Origin: Candidatus Omnitrophota bacterium
Lineage (GTDB): Bacteria > Omnitrophota > Gorgyraeia > Zapsychrales > Zapsychraceae
DNA length: 64,000 bases
NCBI GenBank assembly: GCA_020429915.1
Contig: JAGQKV010000015.1
Span: 1,593-65,592, forward strand
Direction: 5' to 3'
The notes under the pieces were generated by a model. The model was not told the DNA's origin. It did not search any database and saw only the letters and a program-made list of their open reading frames with translations. Shown one piece after another: positions 7,851 through 46,067 of the stretch. Position numbers and translations under genes: made by a program. Numbering within the stretch: position 1 is the first letter of the stretch; every line of letters begins with the position of its first letter.

Positions 7851-8633
7851 TCAGGATCGCAGCCCCGTCCCCTTGCCCAGAAAATAGAAAATAACGGCGG
7901 TGAAGATGGCCGCAAAGAGGATGAGGATCAGGAAACTGAGCAGGATATTGACATCCGAGAAACCGTAAAAACCGTAGCGGAAGCCGTTGATCATATAAAG
8001 GATCGGATTGACCCGCGAGATTGTCCGCCAGACACCCGGCAGCAGGCTGATCGAGTAAAAAACACCGCCCAAATAAGTCAGCGGCGTCAGGATAAAGGTC
8101 GGAACGATGGATATGTCGTCGAACTTCTTGGCCAGGATCCCGTTGATCAAACCGCCCAACGCGAAAACCACGGCGGTCAGCACGATAAAGACCATGATGT
8201 AGCCGAAGTGATGAATCACCGGCCGGGTAAAAAACACCGAGACGGCAAAGACCAGCAGACCACACAGGATCCCCCGTAAGGCGCCGCTGAAGGCATACCC
8301 CCCGACAATCACCCAGTTCGGCGCCGGCGACACCAGCAGTTCTTCCACACTGCGCTGGAACTTGGAGCTGAAAAACGAGCCGGCCACGTTGACGTAGGAA
8401 TTGTTAATCACCGACATCATCACCAGCCCCGGCACGATAAACGCCATGTAGCTGACGCCGTTGATGTCGCTGATCTGAGATCCGATGAACTTGCCGAAGA
8501 TCAGAAAATACAACGACTGGGTGATGATCGGCGGAAAAAGCGTCTGTGGCCAGATCCGTAAAAACCGCACCACCTCTTTGCGGAAGAGCGTGTACATCGC
8601 GACCATGTTCTGTTGATGGGTACTGCGGGTCAT
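7851..8633 (-). CDS. ABC-2 family transporter permease (YadH/NodJ-like)
   Basis: 260-aa six-TM protein with an ABC-2 membrane-domain pattern. It overlaps the upstream ATPase gene by 4 nt. Confidence 0.8.
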   Translation of the reverse strand: MTRSTHQQNMVAMYTLFRKEVVRFLRIWPQTLFPPIITQSLYFLIFGKFIGSQISDINGVSYMAFIVPGLVMMSVINNSYVNVAGSFFSSKFQRSVEELLVSPAPNWVIVGGYAFSGALRGILCGLLVFAVSVFFTRPVIHHFGYIMVFIVLTAVVFALGGLINGILAKKFDDISIVPTFILTPLTYLGGVFYSISLLPGVWRTISRVNPILYMINGFRYGFYGFSDVNILLSFLILILFAAIFTAVIFYFLGKGTGLRS

Positions 8634-9538
8634 TTAAGCAGCTCCAGAAATAATTTCTCCATACGGTTGCCTTGCGGACGGAAATCCCGGATAGACATCC
8701 CGGTCGACTGACTGACTTTATTCAGCAAGGCTGCGATATCGGTCCCTTTGGACAACTCCATGGTGAATGTGTTGTCATCGACGCGCTGCGCGTTGATGTC
8801 GGCCAGCGGACCGATGTCGGTGACCCGGTCCACGTGGACGACGTATGTCTCCTTCTCGAGAATGCCCACCAGATTGCGCACCGAATCATTAGTAATAATC
8901 TTACCGTCCTTGATCATCGCGGCGTTGCGGCACATCTGCTCAACTTCTTCCAGATAATGTGTCGTCAACAGAACGGTGAGTCCGTTACGATTCAGATCGC
9001 GCAGATAATCCCACATGCTGTAACGTAACTCAACGTCCACCCCGGCGGTGGGTTCGTCCAGGATCAGCAGCCGCGGGCGGGTGATCAGGGCACGTGCGAT
9101 CATCAAACGCCGCTTCATCCCGCCGGACAGATTGCGGGACGGCTGGGATTTCTTTTCCCACAACTCCAGACGCTTCAGGAGCTGTTCGCATTCGGAGGCG
9201 GCCTCCGCACGCGGGATGCCGAAGTAGCCGGCCTCTGTCAGGACGATGTCTTCGACCTTTTCGAATTGATTGAAGTTCATCTCCTGCGGCACAACCCCGA
9301 TCATGCGTTTGGCCGCGTTGTGCTCGTGGTCGATGTCGTGTCCGAACACGCTGGCCTGTCCGCCGGTCTTGTTGACCAGCCCGGTGAGGATCCCGATGAT
9401 CGTGGTCTTCCCCGCGCCGTTGGCGCCGAGCAACGCGAAGAAATCTCCGGCCTCGACCTGAAGATCGATCCCTTTGAGGGCCTCGGTGCCGTTGGCATAC
9501 GTCTTGACCAGATTGGAAATGGAAATGGCTTGGTTCAT
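8630..9538 (-). CDS. ABC transporter ATP-binding protein (ABC-2 / YadG-like)
   Basis: Walker A GANGAGKTT, signature LSGGMKRRL and Walker B LLILDEPT. A C-terminal extension is typical of the YadG family. Confidence 0.85.
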   Translation of the reverse strand: MNQAISISNLVKTYANGTEALKGIDLQVEAGDFFALLGANGAGKTTIIGILTGLVNKTGGQASVFGHDIDHEHNAAKRMIGVVPQEMNFNQFEKVEDIVLTEAGYFGIPRAEAASECEQLLKRLELWEKKSQPSRNLSGGMKRRLMIARALITRPRLLILDEPTAGVDVELRYSMWDYLRDLNRNGLTVLLTTHYLEEVEQMCRNAAMIKDGKIITNDSVRNLVGILEKETYVVHVDRVTDIGPLADINAQRVDDNTFTMELSKGTDIAALLNKVSQSTGMSIRDFRPQGNRMEKLFLELLK

Positions 9539-9600
9539 AAGATTGGGATTATATCACAAATCGCCGCCGCAAACCGGAATTCGTCAAGGCGACGGGAAAA

Positions 9601-10434
9601 TCACTTTAAAACACTGAATCGGGGAAACTCCTGCGGACGGATCACGGCCAGGGTGTCTTCGGGAAATTCCTGCCAGTCATTCGGCTCGGCATCGGGGACC
9701 GTTGACGATACGACGGTCATGCGGCTTTGCGGATCGAAACGGTAAAACAGCGTGTTCCCCTTACGGAAGATCCACACCGTCTCACCGTCGCTCATGAAGA
9801 AATTGAGATACCGGTTTTCGTCCTCGATCTTCGCATAGAGTTTGTTGATCGCCGCCCGGATGCCTTGTTCGACGTCGTCATCATATTCTTTGACCGACTT
9901 CATAATCAGCAAGAAATACAGTTCCGAATCGATCCACGATTCAGGCGGATTCTGGTTACATACCGCCGGCGGATGCCGGGCCAGAAAATCCTCACCGATC
10001 AGATCGATCAGTATCTGTTTGCGCATGCCCCCGTTATGTCCGAACAACCATTTGCGGCCGTTGTAGGTGATACGGAACGGATGCGGGTTCGGCACTCCCT
10101 CCACGCAACCGGAAGACGCCCTCCTCAGGTGGCCCATCACGATCTCCGGTTCGAGGACGGCGATGTAACGCACGGCTTCGTCATACTCCTCGTTGAAGCT
10201 GGCGGCCTCGTCCCCGCGAATCACCACTTCGTCGCCCCGATCGTAAAATCCGACCGACCAGCCGTCCGGATAGATCTCTCCAAGATTCTTCAGCGAGTTT
10301 TTCGCGGTGATCAACTGATCTACAATGAATTCGCGGTCGAGGTCCGCTCCCACCGCCACCCAAAAACGGCAGGCGGAGGCGGCCGGCGCGATCATGAGCA
10401 ACGCGATGATAAACAGGACCTGAATAAATTTCAT
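9601..10434 (-). CDS. Exported class II glutamine-amidotransferase-like Ntn hydrolase (Cys immediately after the predicted signal-peptide cleavage site)
   Basis: The start at the internal Met gives MKFIQVLFIIALLMIAPAASA|CRFWVAVGA.... The Cys-first pattern is typical of class II GATase/Ntn-hydrolase domains (normally Met-Cys at the cytoplasmic N-terminus). Motifs GHLRRASSG and FGHNGGM are present. The ATGA overlap with the upstream gene was verified (cat at 10432-10434). Confidence 0.55.
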   Translation of the reverse strand: MKFIQVLFIIALLMIAPAASACRFWVAVGADLDREFIVDQLITAKNSLKNLGEIYPDGWSVGFYDRGDEVVIRGDEAASFNEEYDEAVRYIAVLEPEIVMGHLRRASSGCVEGVPNPHPFRITYNGRKWLFGHNGGMRKQILIDLIGEDFLARHPPAVCNQNPPESWIDSELYFLLIMKSVKEYDDDVEQGIRAAINKLYAKIEDENRYLNFFMSDGETVWIFRKGNTLFYRFDPQSRMTVVSSTVPDAEPNDWQEFPEDTLAVIRPQEFPRFSVLK

Positions 10435-10718
10435 TGGGAAATGTAAGAGGATTTGTACTGGCCGGCACGCTCCCGGCGTTCTTTTTCGGCCTGGCGTTTG
10501 GCCTTTTCCGTACGCCGGGTCCGGCGTTGCGCCTTGCGGCGGCGGAGAATGTTTCCTTTTTCCCGGGCACTCTTGCCGAGTGTGGCAAACCAGTCGGTGA
10601 CTTTGTTCCACGACGTCACCCGGTTGACATCCGTTTTTTCCGCCCCATAGCCGGCGGGGGAACCGAGCAACAGCGTCACGGTCACGAATAGCACGGGCAG
10701 CCGCCTACTCGCGCGCAT
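10431..10718 (-). CDS. Small secreted basic protein, paralogue A (conserved core NRVTSWNKVTDWFATLGK plus a Lys/Arg-rich tail)
   Basis: Start at the internal Met (MRASRRLPVLFVTVTLLLGSPAGYGA...; cat at 10716-10718). It has a signal peptide, then a core shared with the next gene, then RRRKAQRRTRRTEKAKRQAEKERRERAGQYK. Confidence 0.5.
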   Translation of the reverse strand: MRASRRLPVLFVTVTLLLGSPAGYGAEKTDVNRVTSWNKVTDWFATLGKSAREKGNILRRRKAQRRTRRTEKAKRQAEKERRERAGQYKSSYISQ

Positions 10719-11037
10719 CAATCCCTCCGCGGCCGTGCGGCATGCGCTTTTTATCCACCGTTTCCATGATCTGACGCTGCTGGCTGCGCATCTGTTTTTG
10801 AATCCGCTTCTGCTGCTTTTGGTGGGCCTTAAACACCCGCCGTTCCTGACGGCTCTTGCGACGTTCCAACAGGATACGCCGCTTTTCGGTATCATCTTTG
10901 CCCACGGTGGCAAACCAGTCGCCGATCTTGTTCATGGTCGTAACACGGTTGGGATCCTTGGCCGCGTCGGCCGGAACGGTGGAGCAGGTTAACAGCAGGA
11001 CCACGCCGCACAGTCCGGTGAATAGCCTTTTCCTCAT
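10705..11037 (-). CDS. Small secreted basic protein, paralogue B (core NRVTTMNKIGDWFATVGK plus a Lys/Arg/Gln-rich tail)
   Basis: 110 aa. Signal peptide MRKRLFTGLCGVVLLLTCSTVPADA. It clearly parallels the adjacent gene; this is a tandem duplication. Confidence 0.55.
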   Translation of the reverse strand: MRKRLFTGLCGVVLLLTCSTVPADAAKDPNRVTTMNKIGDWFATVGKDDTEKRRILLERRKSRQERRVFKAHQKQQKRIQKQMRSQQRQIMETVDKKRMPHGRGGIDARE

Positions 11038-11045
11038 TTCGTCTC

Positions 11046-11507
11046 CTACTCGTAGTACTCGATGGTAGTGTGTTCTTTCGGGTCGAACTTCATCGACTTC
11101 ATCCCCCAGTTCAGCACCTGCCCGGTGTCCTGATCAATCACCACGTGGAACGGGACCACCGGAAAGATCCCCAGGAAGGTATGACGCTTGTCCTTGAAGA
11201 GCAATGTCCATGTCCGCCGCAGCTCCAACCCCGTTTGGTCCTTGGGCAGGACGGCGTAAACGCGCGGTTGGCCGTTGCGGTACCATGTCGAGCGTCGCTC
11301 GGTCCGGTAGGGATCCAAGCTCACCAGACGGTCATACAGGCTTTGATTCAGAATGAATTCCTGTGCGAGCAGAATGGCCTCGACGCGGTCGACACCGTCA
11401 TCGGTGCGCACATCTTCCGCCAATTCCTTGATCGTGGCGTGATCCAGAACGGGAGTACAACCGCCCAACAGCGCGGCACAGGCTAAAGTTAAGATCAGTC
11501 GCTTCAT
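11046..11507 (-). CDS. Hypothetical lipoprotein
   Basis: 153 aa. The lipobox LLGG|C follows an MKRLILTLACAA signal. No family call. Confidence 0.55.
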   Translation of the reverse strand: MKRLILTLACAALLGGCTPVLDHATIKELAEDVRTDDGVDRVEAILLAQEFILNQSLYDRLVSLDPYRTERRSTWYRNGQPRVYAVLPKDQTGLELRRTWTLLFKDKRHTFLGIFPVVPFHVVIDQDTGQVLNWGMKSMKFDPKEHTTIEYYE

Positions 11508-11544
11508 ATGGGAAGGTCGTTGCGGATCACCGGTACCCGACAGG

Positions 11545-11850
11545 TTAACGGCAATGTCCCGCGCAATACGGATGATAGCCGACGCCGATTCCGAAATGCG
11601 GACGGTAAAACCCTTGCGAGATGTACAAATCCCGGGACCGTTCCGTGGTGTATTCCAGACGAATTCTGTCGGCTTCGTTTTTTAACTCCAGATACTTTTC
11701 CATGCTGATGTCCCCGGCGGTCAGCGCCTCGCGCAGTTCGGTCAACCGCGCGTCATGCCAGGCCCGCGAACCGACACCGGTGTAGGCACTCACGCAACCC
11801 GTCACCACCGATACAATCAGTAAGATCTGCAATATTCGCATGCGGGACAC
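11545..11850 (-). CDS. Hypothetical small lipoprotein
   Basis: 101 aa. Signal peptide with lipobox VVTG|C. The C-terminus is Gly/Tyr/His/Cys-rich (GIGVGYHPYCAGHCR). Confidence 0.5.
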   Translation of the reverse strand: MSRMRILQILLIVSVVTGCVSAYTGVGSRAWHDARLTELREALTAGDISMEKYLELKNEADRIRLEYTTERSRDLYISQGFYRPHFGIGVGYHPYCAGHCR

Positions 11851-11902
11851 TCCTTGAGGGGTTCAGTCGAGGACTTACTGCGATTCTATCACAAATAAAA
11901 CT

Positions 11903-14767
11903 TTATCGGCGTGATATTTTGGCGGAAATGGCAGGCGATTCGGCGGAAACCGCGTCGGGGTCGGGACTGATCACGGAGCCCGGATCACTCCCCAGCAGGA
12001 GCGGCAGGCTGTTCACCGGGGAGACATTGAGGATGACAGGAACAAAACCATCCACGCTCATATCCTTAAGCAAGGACGGATTGACCGAAAAGTGCAATTC
12101 GTCCGCATCGCCCCGGGTCTCCAACTGTAAATTGGCGGGATTCAAATCGATCCCCCCCACCGCATCGGCGTCGGACACAGCCTGTTCCGCCGATGGCGCG
12201 GCGGTGACCATCACGGCATGGTCGCGCAGCGTGCGTTCGAAGACGGTTTGAAACTTCATCGTGCCGTTAAAGACTTTATTGATGTCGGTTCCCGAATTCT
12301 CGATCAGGACCCGGTGCGCGAACGTGCCGAGGGACGTCCAGCTTTCATGCCGCGCCTTGATTTCGAGTTGGCCCGCCCACTCGACGCCTTTGGCCTCGAT
12401 CCGGGCGCGGCGACGGTCCTCCGCGGCCCGCAGATGAACGAACAGCAGATTGTCTTTCTTGCGCCACTCCTCGGGCACCGGTTTCTCCACGGTCTCGACA
12501 ATAATAATCCCGGTGTGGCCGTCAAAGTTATTCGCCCATGCCTCCTCCAGGTGGTCTTCGGCGCGCCAGGCATTGTAACGGTGGATCGTCTTGGACCCGT
12601 TTTTGCGCCGCAACGGATCCAGCCGGTAGCCGAACTCCTCCAGGGCTCCGACAATCAGGTCTTTAGTCACCGTCTTGCCCGCTCCGTGTCGTCCGTGCAG
12701 GACGAGTACCAGCGGTTCATCCGCGCGTTTCCGGCGGACGGCATTGCCGAGCCAACCGGCGATCTGAAGGATTCCCTGGCTGAACGGCTGTTCCTCCTCG
12801 GCGAGCGTCGCGTAATCGGTGACGTTATAATCCCGTTTGAGATGCCCGTACTCATCCCGGCGAATAAAGGTGGTCATGACGATCGCAGTCCCTTGTTTGA
12901 CCGGCGGGCGGCGAAAACGTCTTTCGCCCAGCTCGACCGCGGGCTTGCGATAATGCAGGGATTCCCAGTAGCGGGCGTCGCTGGTATCCGTCCCGTTGGG
13001 GCGTACACTCAGGACCGAAAAGCGGTCCGTTGCCCAAACGGCCGAGGCCAGGGCCTCATCAAAGTCGGGACTCTGCCGGGAGGTAAATTGCATAGCCAAC
13101 ACCTGGTCGATCGGCACGCTACGCCCGGTTTCTGTGTTGACGAAAAAATCGCCGCTGCGGTCCAGCAGGAAGGTATCAAACCGGTATTTATCCTGGTCGT
13201 ATTGCCGGACCCGGACGATCATAATCCCCTTGTGATCGTCGCTAAAAATGCGGGCAAAACCGTAGAGCATCCGCTCCAGAGAAAGTTGAAACATGTTCGA
13301 CGGGCTGTCTAAATCGATCGGACGGTTGGGAGCGAAGGTATCAAGAATCTCTTCCGCCCTGTCCAGCATGCGCATCCAGTTACCGGCAACGGCAAACCAT
13401 TGCGTCCCCTCTTCGGCCCGGCCGTTAAGCACGTGCTCGATGTCACTGCCCGTTTCCCCATCCACGGTATCGCTTTGCTCCACCAAACGCCGCCACACTT
13501 CGCGCAGGTAGGACACATCACTATCCGGCAGGATGCGCTCGACCAGGATCGACTGGTCGCCGTCGGATTCGCCCTTGGCCAACTGCCGCAACGCTGCCGC
13601 CCCGTCTCCGAGGCCATCCAGACGGGCGCGCACCCGGCGCAGAGCGAACACCGGGATCCCGGCCCCGGGATCATCCTGTTCACTGATTGCGGCCGCCATT
13701 TGCGCGTAATCGACGCCGCCGGAGAAATATTTGCGCGGGATGCGTTGATCGGTCAACGGATCGATGTCTTCACGTATGTAGTTGTAAACACCGCGCTCAA
13801 AGGCCTCAACGTACTTACGGTAAATGTGTTCATTGGCCTGCACGTCCGGCTGTGCAATGCCTTCGGTCTTACCGCGATCGACGTACAATTGTCCCAGCAG
13901 ACTGTCACGCAAATGCTGCTTGTACCACACGGCCAGGATAAGCGATTGATAAATTTGACGCAGCCGCGCGAAATTCCGCCCCTCGTTGACCTCCCGCTCG
14001 ATCTCCGGAATAAGTACTTCCCGCACGACGTCCGCCGAGATTCCGCTGACGATATCGGACCGTTCGGGAACAAAGTCGTTGCCGAGGGCATGCCGGCTTA
14101 AGGCCACGTAGTCCTCCTCCAGCATCACCTTCATCCGGCTTTCCAGGACCATGACCGTGGTGCCGTCACGCTGAACGACCGCCTTGTCCGGCACGATCCA
14201 CACCTTGTTGAAGGTATTCATCGGGATCTCGGTGGTACCGAAACGCGCGAAGGCCTTGGCCTGCACGCGCTGCCAAAAGGTCCTGCCTAATTCTTTTTCG
14301 GGATAAAGCATCGACGCGGACAGCTGCTTCAGCAGATAGTCCTGGGCGAGCAGTTCGCGGCCCATATCTGTTTGTCCGAATTCGGCGGGAATGATACGGT
14401 CGGCTTCGTAGGGGGACAGATTGACCCACAGCCTGTCTTCCGGCACGGTAAGCGCCGTCAGGAAAAACTTGATCAGCTGCCGGGCTTCCGCGCTCAGTTC
14501 CTCATCGGACATGTGCGCCTCCCCCTGGTTGACCAAAAAATCGAACTGCAACGGATTATCAGGATCAAGGGTGATGCCTTGGATGACCGGCGGATGGTAG
14601 ACCGGACTGATATCCAGCATCGTCCCCGGGGCCGGCAAATCCGCCACGACGCCATCTGTCAGTCCATATACCGGACCTCCGGATACGAACAAACACACCG
14701 CTGTCACGAGGCTTGTCAGTCCGCGCCAACGGCGGATATTGCGGGATATGTAGAGTCTTAATGTCAT
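11903..14767 (-). CDS. Large (~955 aa) exported or membrane-anchored protein with a C-terminal P-loop NTPase (nucleotide-kinase-like) domain; N-terminal ~650 aa unassigned
   Basis: Start at Met16 of the ORF (cat at 14765-14767) gives MTLRLYISRNIRRWRGLTSLVTAVCLFVSGGPVYG, a signal peptide or type II anchor. The Walker A sits at ~aa 700 (EPLVLVLHGRHGAGKTVTKDLI), followed by a kinase-like region (IIIVETVEKP...LLFVHLRAAEDRRRARIEAKG). It is the first gene of an apparent six-gene minus-strand operon of exported proteins. Confidence 0.6.
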   Translation of the reverse strand: MTLRLYISRNIRRWRGLTSLVTAVCLFVSGGPVYGLTDGVVADLPAPGTMLDISPVYHPPVIQGITLDPDNPLQFDFLVNQGEAHMSDEELSAEARQLIKFFLTALTVPEDRLWVNLSPYEADRIIPAEFGQTDMGRELLAQDYLLKQLSASMLYPEKELGRTFWQRVQAKAFARFGTTEIPMNTFNKVWIVPDKAVVQRDGTTVMVLESRMKVMLEEDYVALSRHALGNDFVPERSDIVSGISADVVREVLIPEIEREVNEGRNFARLRQIYQSLILAVWYKQHLRDSLLGQLYVDRGKTEGIAQPDVQANEHIYRKYVEAFERGVYNYIREDIDPLTDQRIPRKYFSGGVDYAQMAAAISEQDDPGAGIPVFALRRVRARLDGLGDGAAALRQLAKGESDGDQSILVERILPDSDVSYLREVWRRLVEQSDTVDGETGSDIEHVLNGRAEEGTQWFAVAGNWMRMLDRAEEILDTFAPNRPIDLDSPSNMFQLSLERMLYGFARIFSDDHKGIMIVRVRQYDQDKYRFDTFLLDRSGDFFVNTETGRSVPIDQVLAMQFTSRQSPDFDEALASAVWATDRFSVLSVRPNGTDTSDARYWESLHYRKPAVELGERRFRRPPVKQGTAIVMTTFIRRDEYGHLKRDYNVTDYATLAEEEQPFSQGILQIAGWLGNAVRRKRADEPLVLVLHGRHGAGKTVTKDLIVGALEEFGYRLDPLRRKNGSKTIHRYNAWRAEDHLEEAWANNFDGHTGIIIVETVEKPVPEEWRKKDNLLFVHLRAAEDRRRARIEAKGVEWAGQLEIKARHESWTSLGTFAHRVLIENSGTDINKVFNGTMKFQTVFERTLRDHAVMVTAAPSAEQAVSDADAVGGIDLNPANLQLETRGDADELHFSVNPSLLKDMSVDGFVPVILNVSPVNSLPLLLGSDPGSVISPDPDAVSAESPAISAKISRR

Positions 14768-15204: not shown

Positions 15205-15780
15205 ATGCGACGGACAACGAGTCTTTTCGTGGCCCTGTCCCTTCTTTTGAGGGGCACGGCCCTGGCCGGCATCGGCTCCGATGCGACGGCCCGCACATCA
15301 CAGGAACGCCTCGAGTTGGCGCGTTTTCTCAAGGCGCAAAACATCCACTCCCTGCCCGAATACGTGAAGTGGTTCGAACAGCACATGACCTACCGGCCCG
15401 ATGGAGAGCGCGACAACTGGGCGCGGCCGCTCGATACCCTGCTGCGTCAAGGCGGGGACTGCGAAGATTTGGCCTTCCTGAACAAGGCGATGATCGCCCT
15501 GTTCGGCATAGAAGGCCGGGTTCTGGGCACGCGCCGAGGAGACGAACATCACGTGTTCCTCGTGTTTGAACACGCCGGCCGCATCTTCGTTTTCGATAAC
15601 ACGCGCTGTATCCGCACCAAGGCGCATTCGCTGGACGACATCGCCGCCTTTCTCTACCGGAAATACGAAATCGATTATCTGCTGGAAGTGGAAAACTCAC
15701 CGCGCCACATCCGCGTCCTGTATGACACGTTCACGCTACGCGGTTACGCGCGCGGTCCCTTGCCATTACCCGCCAGTTAG
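15205..15780 (+). CDS. Bacterial transglutaminase-like cysteine proteinase (BTLCP), secreted
   Basis: 191 aa. Signal peptide MRRTTSLFVALSLLLRGTALA. The diagnostic GGDCEDLAFL motif holds the catalytic Cys. The downstream His/Asp region is present (HHVFLVFE...FDN). Confidence 0.75.
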   Translation: MRRTTSLFVALSLLLRGTALAGIGSDATARTSQERLELARFLKAQNIHSLPEYVKWFEQHMTYRPDGERDNWARPLDTLLRQGGDCEDLAFLNKAMIALFGIEGRVLGTRRGDEHHVFLVFEHAGRIFVFDNTRCIRTKAHSLDDIAAFLYRKYEIDYLLEVENSPRHIRVLYDTFTLRGYARGPLPLPAS

Positions 15781-43874: not shown

Positions 43875-44849
43875 ATGAATTTAGTCGAAATACTTTCATG
43901 GTCAGATAAAAGATCCAGAGCTTACTTAGAGTAGATCAGGTGGAACGGAAAGCCCAAATGCCCGCATTGTGGGAGCGAGGATCATGTGAGACTTAAAGGA
44001 AAGGCCCCTAGAGCCGGTGTCATTAAGTGTAAGAATAAGGAATGCCGCAAGCAGTATACCGTGACCGTGGCGACCATCTTCCATTCTTCCCACGTTCCCC
44101 TTAGAAAGTGGATCGCGGCCTACTGGCTTATGTGTTCTGCCAAAAAAGGCTATTCGGCTAATCAGTTATCCCGTGACGTAGATGTGACGTATAAGACCGC
44201 TTGGTTTATGGCCCACAGAATCCGCCACGCCATGAGATACAATTCGTTCAAGAAATTGGACGGAGACGTTGAGGTGGATGAAACTTATGTGGGCGGTAAA
44301 GCCAAAAATAAACGCCAGTCATATCACGCCAGAAAAAAGCGTGAAAAAGAACAGCGCAAGACTGGGAAAAACAGCACTAAGGTTCCGGTTATGGCTCTCG
44401 TCGAGCGTGACGGTAGCGTTAAATCTCAAGTGTTGTATCGTGTTTCGGCTAAGAAACTGAGAACGGCAATCGAATTGTATGTTGATCCGAAAGCAACCGT
44501 ACACACCGACGAGCTTCCCCTCTATCGCGGGATAGGACACAAGTTTGCTGGTGGCCATAAGACGGTGAACCATTCGATCAACGAATATGTCAACGGTGAT
44601 TGCACCACCAACACGGTGGAATCATATTTCGCCCTGCTGAAGCGTGGAGTAATAGGAATATATCACCATGTTAGCACGACTCATTTACAAAGATATTGTG
44701 ACGAATTTGTTTTCCGCTGGGATCATAGAAAACTCAGCATCGAAGAGGCTTTCAACCGCGCATTGCAGTTGAGTGATGGGAAGCGACTGTCTTATAAGGG
44801 CAGGATTAAGCGGTTTGCAGATAAGTCTTGGTGGAGAAGTGATATTTAA
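43875..44849 (+). pseudogene. IS1595-family transposase interrupted by an in-frame TAG (expected Gln codon) at 43932-43934
   Basis: The frame from ATG 43875 reads MNLVEILSWSDKRSRAYLE*IRWNGKPKCPHCGSEDHVRLKGK... and continues into the 287-aa ORF that the track starts at GTG 43986. The family consensus is ...YLEQLRW...CPxCG, so the stop sits where the conserved Gln is (CAG to TAG). Confidence 0.65.
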
Positions 44850-45130
44850 TGAGCCACGCGAACCCACAACAGCAACCAGATAAGCCAAGACTGGTTATTA
44901 TAGACTGGGAAGATAGCGTCCAACCCATAGCGCAGTGGATGTATTTATGCGACCTTGACCAACATCAGATTGTAAAGTGTCGGTCTGTTGGATGGTTGAT
45001 TGGCGATGGGCGCAGGGTCAAAGCATTGGCGCAAAATTTGGGTGATATTGGCCGTAAAGATAGCATCCAAGTCAGCGGCATACTTAAGATCCCCGCGCGC
45101 TGCATCACCAGAATTCAGGATTTAGGCTAG
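44849..45130 (+). CDS. Hypothetical 93-aa protein translationally coupled to the transposase (IS passenger or accessory gene)
   Basis: A TAATG overlap links it to the transposase stop. No family call. Confidence 0.35.
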   Translation: MSHANPQQQPDKPRLVIIDWEDSVQPIAQWMYLCDLDQHQIVKCRSVGWLIGDGRRVKALAQNLGDIGRKDSIQVSGILKIPARCITRIQDLG

Positions 45131-45143
45131 AAGGCGGTTATTT

Positions 45144-45290
45144 ACGTTTGCCCTTCGTCTCATCCTGACTGAGGACAGAAGCCCCCAACTGTCTAATTTG
45201 TCTATTAGACAGGCTGTTTGGTTCCCTCATAGCTTTGGAGGCTATGCTGGACATTTTGTTTCCTGTTTCTTTTTTTGGTTTGGTCATTTC
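45144..45290 (-). CDS. Putative small protein (49 aa, Lys-rich N-terminus) with a strong RBS
   Basis: Not in the supplied track. The minus-strand ORF reads MTKPKKETGNKMSSIASKAMREPNSLSNRQIRQLGASVLSQDETKGKRK, and an AAGGAG lies 5 nt upstream of the ATG. A perfect hairpin (GGGAGGC-ttaatt-GCCTCCC, 45306-45325) lies just upstream. Confidence 0.3.
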
Positions 45291-45430
45291 TGACTCCTTT
45301 GTTAAGGGAGGCTTAATTGCCTCCCAATCTGCTCGTCGAGGCTAGACAAAAAAACACAATAAAAAACCCGAAATATACATTGAATAGTTTAAGGCTAGTG
45401 ATAATATGGTTTTAGGGCAAAAAAAAATCT

Positions 45431-45459
45431 TTGACTTTTTTTGCAATTTTTTATATTAT
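45431..45459 (+). promoter_or_regulatory. Near-consensus sigma70-type promoter (TTGACT, 16-17 bp spacer, TATATT/TATTAT) firing toward the antisense of tRNA-like gene 1
   Basis: Read directly in the AT-rich island. Confidence 0.4.
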
Positions 45460-45485
45460 GTTGTACCTTTTAATGCTCTGTTTTG

Positions 45486-45559
45486 CGCCCCCTCCGGGAT
45501 TCGAGCCCGGAACCTCACGTTTAGCGGACGCGCGCTCTATCCAATTGAGCTAAGGGGGC
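45486..45559 (-). tRNA. tRNA-like gene 1 (class I, Arg-like body; loop CCGCUAA implies anticodon GCU; C33 and C54 non-canonical)
   Basis: The minus-strand sequence GCCCCCUUAGCUCAAUUGGAUAGAGCGCGCGUCCGCUAAACGUGAGGUUCCGGGCUCGAAUCCCGGAGGGGGCG folds as a cloverleaf. It has a 7-bp acceptor, a GCUC/GAGC D-stem with G18G19, a 5-bp anticodon stem, a 5-nt variable loop and a 5-bp T-stem. CCA is not encoded. Confidence 0.45.
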
Positions 45560-45678
45560 GACAAAACATAAAAATAGCCCGTGGCGGACATAAAAAATCC
45601 GCAACGTGGTCAAACGTTAATGATCGTGGTACAGGGCCTAATCTGACAACCACGAGCATTTCACGGGCAAATCTGAGA

Positions 45679-45714
45679 AGCCGTGTTGTCATTACTGATA
45701 GCACGGCTTTTCTT
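45679..45714 (+). terminator. Rho-independent terminator candidate on the plus strand (AGCCGTG-16 nt loop-CACGGCT followed by TTTCTT)
   Basis: Read directly. Together with the promoter at 45431 it would bracket a ~245-nt plus-strand transcript. Confidence 0.4.
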
Positions 45715-45862
45715 ATATATATAGTATTACTATGGCACGCGATTTCAATAAAAAACTAGAAAATATTGCCATTCGCTCTTTCTAATCGGAATATGGGAAC
45801 CTTCGGTCGGATGAACTTTTCCTTGCGTAGCAGTTAGTAATGGATTACTATTAAGGAGATAT

Positions 45863-45949
45863 GGGGACGGTGAGACTCGAACTCACAAATCCCGGCTAGG
45901 AGATACTGGATTAGGAATCCAGCGCGTTTGCCAGTTTCGCCACGCCCCC
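45863..45949 (-). tRNA. tRNA-like gene 2 (class II body with long variable arm, A73; anticodon loop UUCCUAA gives CCU)
   Basis: Minus strand: GGGGGCG-UG-GCGA-AACUGGCAA-ACGC-G-CUGGA-UUCCUAA-UCCAG-UAUCUCCUAGCCGGGAUUU-GUGAG-UUCGAGU-CUCAC-CGUCCCC-A. The T-arm is canonical, with U33 and A37. The ~19-nt variable region is Leu/Ser-like, which is unusual for a CCU (Arg-AGG) anticodon. Confidence 0.45.
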
Positions 45950-45965
45950 ACCCTCCCACAAAATA

Positions 45966-46067
45966 TTGCCGCTCCCAGACTTGAACTGGGACTACCAGCA
46001 CGAGAGTTGGCCCGGCCTCCTACAACCTTGCCAATAACTGGCGTGCGATCCATTACACTAAGCGGCA
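45966..46067 (-). tRNA. tRNA-like gene 3 (aberrant; canonical acceptor, D-arm and T-arm, but the anticodon-stem helix encloses a 37-nt insertion and no 7-nt loop)
   Basis: Minus strand: TGCCGCT-TA-GTGT-AATGGATC-GCAC-G-CCAGT...(37 nt)...GCTGG-TAG-TCCCAG-TTCAAGT-CTGGG-AGCGGCA-A. The T-loop TTCAAGT is canonical. The first base is T1:A72. It may be a pseudo-tRNA or a tRNA-like structured RNA. Confidence 0.35.

Follow-up and report, generated by a model that had tools for sequence, protein, structure and literature searches.

The 64,000-nucleotide stretch of DNA analyzed here (in the following, the window) comes from a Candidatus Omnitrophota bacterium of the family Zapsychraceae (GenBank assembly GCA_020429915.1, contig JAGQKV010000015.1, positions 1,593 to 65,592) and contains six consecutive minus-strand genes, G1 to G6, followed by the two genes of an ABC-2 exporter. 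A first-pass annotation had described the six genes as an operon led by G1. The key point, which it had missed, concerns the family behind G1, which is huge and modular: G1 is a small representative of a very large group of proteins that appears restricted to Omnitrophota and in which a conserved N-terminal module (N-module) and a conserved C-terminal module (C-module) frame a variable cargo. The main interest of the region lies in this family-wide export frame, rather than in a six-gene system. We read G1 as a framed exported carrier and G2 to G6 as a separate cassette, and put the probability of this reading as a whole at roughly 60%.

A protein family defined by two flanking modules

G1 and its parts are arranged as follows (aa, amino acids; a slash marks a predicted cleavage site):

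11903-14767, minus strand: G1, modular protein of 954 aa (signal peptide, N-module, cargo, C-module and tail)
14663-14767, minus strand: G1 signal peptide, aa 1-35, ending ...GGPVYG/LTDG
13715-14662, minus strand: G1 N-module, aa 36-351, with LPAPGTM, WVNLSPYE, NTFNKVWIVP and RKYFSGG
12788-13714, minus strand: middle region of the G1 cargo, aa 352-660, without recognizable domain
12170-12787, minus strand: P-loop nucleotide-kinase-like domain of the G1 cargo, aa 661-866
12671-12694, minus strand: Walker A motif GRHGAGKT of G1, aa 692-699
11990-12169, minus strand: G1 C-module, aa 867-926, GGIDLNPANL...DGFVPVILNVSPVNSLPLLLG

The first ~650 aa of G1 had been described as matching nothing recognizable, but the first 351 aa match more than 3000 proteins: among 8000 candidates scored, 3279 gave significant matches to the N-terminal region. 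Apart from three full-length orthologues (P0001, P0002 and P0003, with 95%, 67% and 60% identity, respectively), the best 120 matches align to the first 32-47% of G1 only, at identities of 43-59% (mostly 50-59%). P0001 belongs to a metagenome-assembled genome labeled Candidatus Omnitrophica bacterium, so that the protein search, too, assigns the window to Candidatus Omnitrophota. BLAST comparison with these 120 matches set the module boundaries. The C-module is also present in 112 of the 120, and the cargo between the two modules ranges from 149 to 1212 aa. By local comparison, the order within the family is a long signal peptide, the N-module, the cargo, the C-module, and a short acidic or polar tail. 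Invariant columns of the N-module comprise W114-E121, T185-I191, and Y347/G350/G351; its family motifs are LPxPGTM, WVNLSPYE, and NTFNKVWIVP, and an invariant RKYFSGG closes it across the family. The C-module motif (G1 aa 871-926) opens with GGIDLNP, of which GGI is 100% conserved, and continues with GFxPVIINxxPxxNLPLLLG. G1 carries all three marks of the family, i.e., a signal peptide before LNLPxPG, the N-module motifs, and the C-module motif. At the level of sequence, both the architecture of the family and the membership of G1 in it are clear.

What lies between the modules differs widely among the relatives. Metabolic cargo includes UDP-glucose pyrophosphorylase (UGPase), phosphoglucomutase (PGM), PGI, TIM, and aldolase, as well as FBPase, GAPDH, isocitrate dehydrogenase (IDH), and ROK kinase. 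Signaling cargo is represented by receiver domains, HATPase, and sigma54 AAA; DnaJ, HEAT repeats, GNAT, macro domains, methyltransferases, and peptidases were found in addition. A genome scan identified more than 573 family loci in species-representative genomes. The best 80 of these are labeled Omnitrophota/Omnitrophica (50), 'Planctomycetales' metagenome-assembled genomes (MAGs; 26), Ca. Aceula, which belongs to Omnitrophota (2), and 'bacterium' (2). Several MAGs hold multiple paralogues each, and tandem arrangements occur, with three members in a row at L017:1381-12179 and further tandems in L026, L064, and L043. Local comparison revealed no second family member in the window besides G1. 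When the neighbors of family members were clustered for 80 loci, no recurrent partner gene emerged; the largest cluster covers eight loci and looks like a spurious open reading frame (ORF).

Neither module of G1 matches Pfam, NCBIfam, or a PDB sequence, and in 53 other family members the modules are not covered by any Pfam model. The AlphaFold2 (AF2) model of the N-module is confident (predicted local distance difference test score, pLDDT, 79.6; predicted template modeling score 0.81) and shows three beta-hairpins and about seven helices. Foldseek returned no match below E 0.07 for the full-length G1 model against the PDB and none below E 0.17 for the N-module model against BFVD, and the N-module may thus be regarded as a candidate new fold. 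The C-module is modeled as mostly beta (pLDDT 69-87). It contains a Pro/Asn-rich hydrophobic stretch (G1 aa 907-926) with a Kyte-Doolittle (KD) value of 1.54, which AF2 models as a beta strand; KD values of at least 1.6 are reached by this stretch in 58 of the 120 members. The 'transmembrane helices' listed for giant Omnitrophota proteins (10.64898/2026.06.07.730766) might partly be Pro/Asn-rich stretches of this kind, with KD values of 1.5-2.0. Double glycines are invariant at both cargo borders, namely in PRKYFSGG (G1 aa 344-351) and in GGIDLNP (aa 871-877, positions 12137-12157). Their position suggests putative processing sites of the double-glycine type, which we regard as a lead only. 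C39 peptidase domains are reported in giant proteins of Omnitrophota (10.1101/2023.11.21.568195).

Export signal, topology and cargo

For a profile of the signal peptide, 109 family N-termini were aligned on the LNLPxPG motif. The n-region consists of 20-39% Lys/Arg with almost no acidic residues, the h-region comprises about 12 uncharged hydrophobic positions, and a Pro/Ser-rich c-region follows. The last signal-peptide positions are Ala/Gln, typically YA/Q, which in G1 corresponds to PVYG/L before LNLPxPG; the junction in G1 joins ...RRWRGLTSLVTAVCLFVSGGPVYG to LTDGVVADLPAPGTM. With KD values below the transmembrane threshold, the h-region of G1 lacks the length to be called a transmembrane helix, and 104 of the 120 members show no internal hydrophobic segment on the same scale. 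Judged by its sequence, the family N-terminus is a textbook Sec signal peptide. We also rejected export by the Tat pathway, since a twin-arginine motif is missing from the family consensus, which shows a lone Arg (YR). G1 would accordingly be translocated by Sec and cleaved after PVYG, a step that we infer as part of the reading to which the above probability applies.

The first-pass annotation had predicted the P-loop domain to lie outside the cytoplasm, and by every sequence feature considered it does lie behind a cleavable Sec signal peptide. The inverted topology offered at the same time, with an N-in anchor and a cytoplasmic C-terminus, found no support: the n-region is basic and the h-region short, from which a C-out orientation follows. 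Given the basic n-region, the standard topologies all place the cargo outside the cytoplasm. The puzzle of an extracytoplasmic NTPase is not peculiar to G1 but family-wide, because relatives carry other enzymes between the same modules.

This bears on a rival explanation, according to which the N-terminal segment is an uncleaved tether or a non-exported element, the cargo of the family stays on the cytoplasmic face with access to ATP, NAD, and UTP, and the modules organize enzymes on the inner membrane. The cargo itself speaks for it, being typically cytoplasmic (P-loop kinase, PfkB, UGPase, PGM, PGI, TIM, aldolase, GAPDH, IDH, receiver, HATPase, sigma54 AAA, and DnaJ), and West-Roberts et al. 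(10.1101/2023.11.21.568195) likewise suspected a localization error behind the extracellular prediction for glycolytic domains in giant Omnitrophota proteins. We nevertheless consider this explanation unlikely. The basic n-region, the h-region of about 12 residues, the Pro/Ser helix breakers, and the small residues at the cleavage positions all argue against a tether; an N-in orientation with a single span leaves the rest of the protein outside, and a second span through the hydrophobic stretch of the C-module would still leave the cargo periplasmic.

Turning to the cargo of G1, we searched aa 352-866 against 1.84 billion representatives and obtained six matches. Five of them are framed proteins with a complete N-terminus or fragments of framed proteins that end in the C-module; the weakest match, P0125 (E 8.6e-5), is an AAA+ ATPase and not a relative. 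P0122 (4743 aa, framed) combines PfkB, a G1-like middle region, AAA_18, GNAT, methyltransferase, and receiver domains, with the middle region at residues 817-1068, after the PfkB domain; P0124 (2327 aa) contains AAA_18 and GNAT, and P0123 (3711 aa) is a further match. The middle region of the G1 cargo is poorly modeled, with low AF2 confidence. From these comparisons, the G1 cargo is read as a lineage-specific region of ~300 aa followed by an AAA_18-type, nucleotide-kinase-like P-loop domain.

In G1 itself, AAA_18 (PF13238) scores 22.6 bits with the full protein and 26.0 bits with the isolated domain, against a Pfam cut-off of 29.4 bits; P0122 (37 bits) and P0124 (42 bits) lie above the cut-off. 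All seven relatives match AAA_18 (best E 4.9e-12), and the Walker A motif GRHGAGKT, the basis of the earlier nucleotide-kinase-like call, is conserved in all seven, with G52, G55, G57, and K58 of alignment A2 invariant. A Walker B-like hhhhE[TS]V strand (IIIVETV in G1) is likewise conserved in seven sequences, as are two invariant arginines within a basic stretch of the domain. From general knowledge of such enzymes, we interpret this stretch as a possible kinase lid. Profile searches of the P-loop domain against the PDB gave weak kinase-type matches, i.e., thymidylate kinase (0.0035), APS kinase, and PezT (0.11). Because AAA_18 is found in all relatives and the catalytic-type motifs are conserved, the domain is real and probably an active nucleotide-kinase-like NTPase.

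The initial call as to the motif and the kinase-like character thus stands, and the proposed likeness to particular families does not. PPK2 appears neither among the Pfam matches of G1 (E ≤ 0.1) nor among those of the isolated P-loop domain (E ≤ 1), nor among the 25 of 42 families listed for the seven relatives. Zeta_toxin (PF06414, cut-off 22.3 bits) is sub-threshold and absent from the G1 matches; it occurs in five of the seven relatives with a best E of 2.1e-4, which is as weak as the matches to about twelve further P-loop families and falls well short of AAA_18. A specific kinase assignment was rejected, since zeta toxin, TsaE, KAP, and Torsin match only weakly at the P-loop level and PPK2 not at all. 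With the AAA_18 or nucleoside/nucleotide kinase fold (thymidylate, APS, adenylate, and shikimate kinases), G1 shares GxxGxGK[TS], a hydrophobic strand ending in an acidic residue, and the two arginines. Unlike these kinases, its domain stays under the Pfam cut-off, is embedded in a modular protein predicted to be exported, and can be assigned to no specific kinase family or substrate.

G1 and the neighboring genes

All six minus-strand ORFs, each with a signal peptide or a lipobox, were recovered as described; to call them an operon with G1 at its head, however, is to go beyond what the sequence by itself can show. The features around G1 are the following:

11883-11895, minus strand: extended -10-like element TTTGTGATAGAAT in the gap between G1 and G2, exact match
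11545-11841, minus strand: G2, lipoprotein of 98 aa with a His/Cys-rich C-terminus
11046-11507, minus strand: G3, lipoprotein of 153 aa
10705-11037, minus strand: G4, basic secreted protein of 110 aa, C-terminal PHGRGGID
10431-10718, minus strand: G5, paralogue of G4, 95 aa
9601-10434, minus strand: G6, 277 aa, secreted class-II glutamine-amidotransferase-like Ntn hydrolase
9548-9560, minus strand: extended -10 element TTTGTGATATAAT, 9 nt upstream of the start codon of the ABC ATPase
8630-9538, minus strand: ABC ATPase (Pfam ABC_tran, 9e-34)
7851-8633, minus strand: ABC-2 permease (Pfam ABC2_membrane, 3e-37)
15205-15780, plus strand: secreted transglutaminase-like (BTLCP/LapG-like) cysteine protease, divergent neighbor of G1

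Related loci bear on the relation between G1 and the other genes. Where G1 is 60-95% identical, the order of G1 to G6 and the ABC ATPase is kept, including the permease where the contig reaches it. The ABC ATPase gene follows G6 in six of six related loci, and the permease is present in the five that extend far enough. More distant genomes (G3 61-68% and ABC ATPase 70-73% identical) differ in the G1 slot: L086 has a framed protein of 2327 aa and a single G4/G5 copy, G5 being missing, and L087 and L088 have a framed protein of 3749 aa. L085 lacks a G1-type gene altogether (338-bp gap, no tblastn match) and keeps G2 to G6, the ABC genes, and the flanking synteny. Compared with its positional orthologues of 2327-3749 aa, G1 is thus the short form. 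Additional domains, in sets that differ from protein to protein (PfkB, GNAT, methyltransferase, or receiver), are found in the longer orthologues and in the related P0122. A slot length that changes from 0 to 3749 aa among positional orthologues indicates rapid gain and loss of cargo domains. G1 also diverges faster than its neighbors (60-67% vs 76-89% identity), and among 80 loci G2 to G6 were never found next to other family members.

Promoter-like elements point in the same direction. The window contains exactly two copies of the 13-mer TTTGTGATA[G/T]AAT, one in the gap between G1 and G2 and one 9 nt before the start of the ABC ATPase. At the first site, TGnTAnAAT is kept in L001, L003, L004, L085, L086, and L088; at the second, TGnTATAAT lies 8-9 nt before the ATG of the ABC ATPase in all seven genomes (the window and the six related loci). 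An extended -10 element so close to the ATG implies a leaderless or near-leaderless mRNA of the ABC ATPase, which would lack a Shine-Dalgarno site. Since the G1 slot varies while G2 to G6 and the ABC genes persist, and since the -10 elements are conserved, G1, G2 to G6, and the ABC-2 exporter are probably three separate, adjacent transcription units. G2 to G6 would form a separate conserved envelope cassette with a putative promoter of its own, and the ABC-2 exporter likewise; this is part of the reading weighted above. G1 is best read as a fast-evolving, length-variable, and dispensable neighbor of the cassette, not as its obligatory lead gene.

Compared with this, the earlier view of a six-gene system held up in its sequence features and only in part as a single system, as G2 to G6 are independent of G1. 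Conservation of the neighborhood shows the same division: the gene order is indeed kept in other genomes, and it lies within a much wider block of synteny. In its full form, the rival explanation is that G1 to G6, perhaps with the ABC-2 exporter, constitute one extracytoplasmic phosphotransfer or nucleotide-binding system, with G1 as the kinase and G2 to G6 as its partners or substrates. Shared gene order in six related loci would fit this, yet the conserved synteny reaches more than ten genes on both sides of G1 to G6, so that common descent can explain the order as well. Tight spacing is a further point in its favor, with G5 and G6 overlapping by ATGA, G4 and G5 overlapping by 14 nt, and gaps of 8 nt between G3 and G4, 37 nt between G2 and G3, and 61 nt between G1 and G2. 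The last gap is 52 nt if G2 is counted from an alternative GTG at 11850 instead of the ATG, which stands behind an AAGGAG site. No terminator was found between G1 and G2 either, so that read-through co-transcription may occur, but the promoter-like element conserved in this gap stands against a single unit. The C-terminal PHGRGGID of G4 (10705-10731) is conserved in six orthologues and resembles the GGID that opens the C-module of G1; in the ~19,000 aa of ORFs in the window, GGI[DN] occurs only at these two places. Set against the locus in which G2 to G6 and the exporter persist although a G1-type gene is missing, the slot length of 0 to 3749 aa, and the absence of G2 to G6 beside other family members, these points leave a single system quite improbable.

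Some of the same observations weigh against our own reading. The GRGGID echo in G4 might reflect a genuine functional tie of G1 to the cassette, and the missing terminator counts here as well. The AAA_18 score of G1 under the Pfam cut-off and the low-confidence AF2 model of its cargo are further points on this side, and so is the type of cargo in the family, because kinases, NAD- or UTP-dependent enzymes, receiver domains, and DnaJ normally need cytoplasmic cofactors; an ordinary role in the periplasm is hard to square with such a need.

That a giant multi-domain gene has decayed here and left G1 as a remnant, without a function of its own and with the P-loop as a relic, would agree with its being far shorter than the positional orthologues of 2327-3749 aa and with its lower identity compared to the neighbors, but is very hard to reconcile with an ORF that four genomes maintain uninterrupted, at 60-95% identity and with every module kept, with a Walker A motif, a Walker B-like motif, and two arginines that are invariant across seven relatives, and with an N-module that is 70-77% conserved between orthologues.

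As to the cassette itself, the initial descriptions of G2 and G3 as lipoproteins, of G4 and G5 as tandem paralogues, and of G6 as a secreted Cys-first Ntn hydrolase were borne out. The lipobox Cys of G2 (VTGC) and G3 (LGGC) fits [LVI][ASTVIG][GAS]C and is conserved in six orthologues each. G2 has no Pfam or NCBIfam family match. Its C-terminal tail (11545-11600) is rich in His and Cys, reading GYHPYCAGHCR here and HHHRHH or SRHHHH in relatives, and this composition suggests metal binding. A Zip transporter is found within the conserved synteny of relatives. For G3, 14 homologues were identified, all from Omnitrophota and all at least 61% identical, and searches with G4 found only close homologues from Omnitrophota. 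G4 and G5 both have signal peptides of the A-x-A type and are ~43% identical (E 2e-9). G6 matches GATase_4 with 69.9 bits (cut-off 23; E 2.2e-19) as well as PDB entries 1TE5 and 3MDN. Its A-x-A/C signal-peptide junction and A/CRFWV are invariant in six orthologues, and the predicted cleavage would leave the nucleophile Cys22, directly after the signal peptide, as the first residue.

The divergent protease shows weak matches to Transglut_core (6e-4), Peptidase_C93 (6.5e-3), and LapG (2.9e-5) and carries a GGDCEDLA motif. Five related loci reach far enough upstream, and in four of these, including the locus without G1, it adjoins the G1 slot; L087 and L088 end before this position, within the 3749-aa gene, of which they contain just the 3' portion. 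Enzymes of the LapG type cut giant surface proteins. Elsewhere in the window, positions 44001-46000 have a GC content of 0.458 compared to ~0.55 and hold a zinc-ribbon/transposase-like ORF (43986-44849) and small ORFs; this segment may be a mobile insertion.

Known systems and the meaning of the frame

The phenomenon to which G1 belongs has been noticed before in larger proteins. Giant Omnitrophota proteins, including a class of 'multi-enzyme metabolic clusters', were described by Nielsen & Lui 2026 (bioRxiv 10.64898/2026.06.07.730766), and the Archaeovorins by West-Roberts et al. 2023 (bioRxiv 10.1101/2023.11.21.568195), who noted that glycolytic domains are predicted to be extracellular and suspected the possible error in localization mentioned above. 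The giant proteins resemble the G1 family in phylum, in their N-terminal signal peptides, and in their predicted location outside the cytoplasm, and the two repertoires have PGM, ROK/PfkB kinases, GNAT, methyltransferases, HATPase, receiver domains, HEAT repeats, and glycolytic enzymes in common. G1 differs in having only 954 aa and a single recognizable enzyme domain, although its relatives reach up to 4743 aa. Archaeovorins, as defined in that preprint, have at least 30 kaa, a C39 peptidase, and SecA-like domains; G1 shares none of these traits. Term searches found the shared N- and C-modules mentioned in neither preprint, and no description of the family turned up in term searches of Seymour 2023 and Williams 2021 or in wider literature searches. 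Within this already noticed phenomenon, G1 is thus a small member; it also brings to light a defining frame, which is absent from Pfam (2025) and NCBIfam (2026) and has no structural relative.

Two types of known systems invite comparison. Like MARTX and polymorphic toxins, the G1 family has conserved ends that flank a variable number of unrelated enzymatic domains, a likeness that is an analogy only. In such toxins, conserved trafficking regions frame effector domains, a design by which enzymes of the cytoplasmic type could plausibly be brought to another cell. Unlike MARTX, G1 lacks RTX/MARTX repeats, a cysteine protease domain (CPD), and a type I secretion signal and has a Sec signal peptide instead; the cargo of its family consists of housekeeping-type enzymes rather than toxins, and there is no similarity to toxin systems in sequence or fold. 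The C-terminal sorting domains (C-terminal domain of the type IX secretion system, PEP-CTERM/exosortase, LPXTG/sortase, and autotransporter barrel) likewise place a short C-terminal module and a Sec signal on unrelated proteins within one phylum. In the G1 family, by contrast, the hydrophobic stretch is Pro/Asn-rich and followed by an acidic tail instead of a basic cluster, and a large N-module is added. Pfam and NCBIfam searches of G1 gave no match to a sorting signal, RTX, CPD, a C-terminal beta-barrel, or Por_Secre_tail.

If G1 is a framed exported carrier, the N-/C-frame would hold or deliver the kinase-like cargo outside the cytoplasm after Sec export. The cargo might reside in the periplasm or at the cell surface, possibly anchored via the hydrophobic stretch of the C-module, or alternatively act at or inside a host cell. 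Omnitrophota are reported to be ultra-small cells with host-dependent traits (PMC10066038), and for this reason a host-facing or host-delivered role would be the most economical route to nucleotides for the cargo. A bolder version, which we offer tentatively and as doubtful, would see in the frame a phylum-wide, Sec-dependent chassis that exports hundreds of cytoplasmic-type enzymes, among them kinases, sugar-nucleotide and glycolytic enzymes, and signaling domains, for use in an energized extracytoplasmic compartment facing the host or inside the host cell. Cargo might then be freed at RKYFSGG/ and GG/IDLNP, G1 would be the minimal version with a single kinase, and G4 might act as a co-factor of, or competitor for, the same recognition site.

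The two modules provide a simple sequence handle for finding such proteins, and G1, with its 954 aa and one cargo domain, lends itself to experiments on localization, processing, and activity. Should the frame truly export its cargo, the puzzling 'extracellular' enzyme domains of giant Omnitrophota proteins would be explained. Throughout the phylum, some of the kinase, sugar-nucleotide, and glycolytic chemistry would then take place beyond the cells' own cytoplasm or in hosts, which would change the genome-based reconstruction of the metabolism and lifestyle of Omnitrophota.

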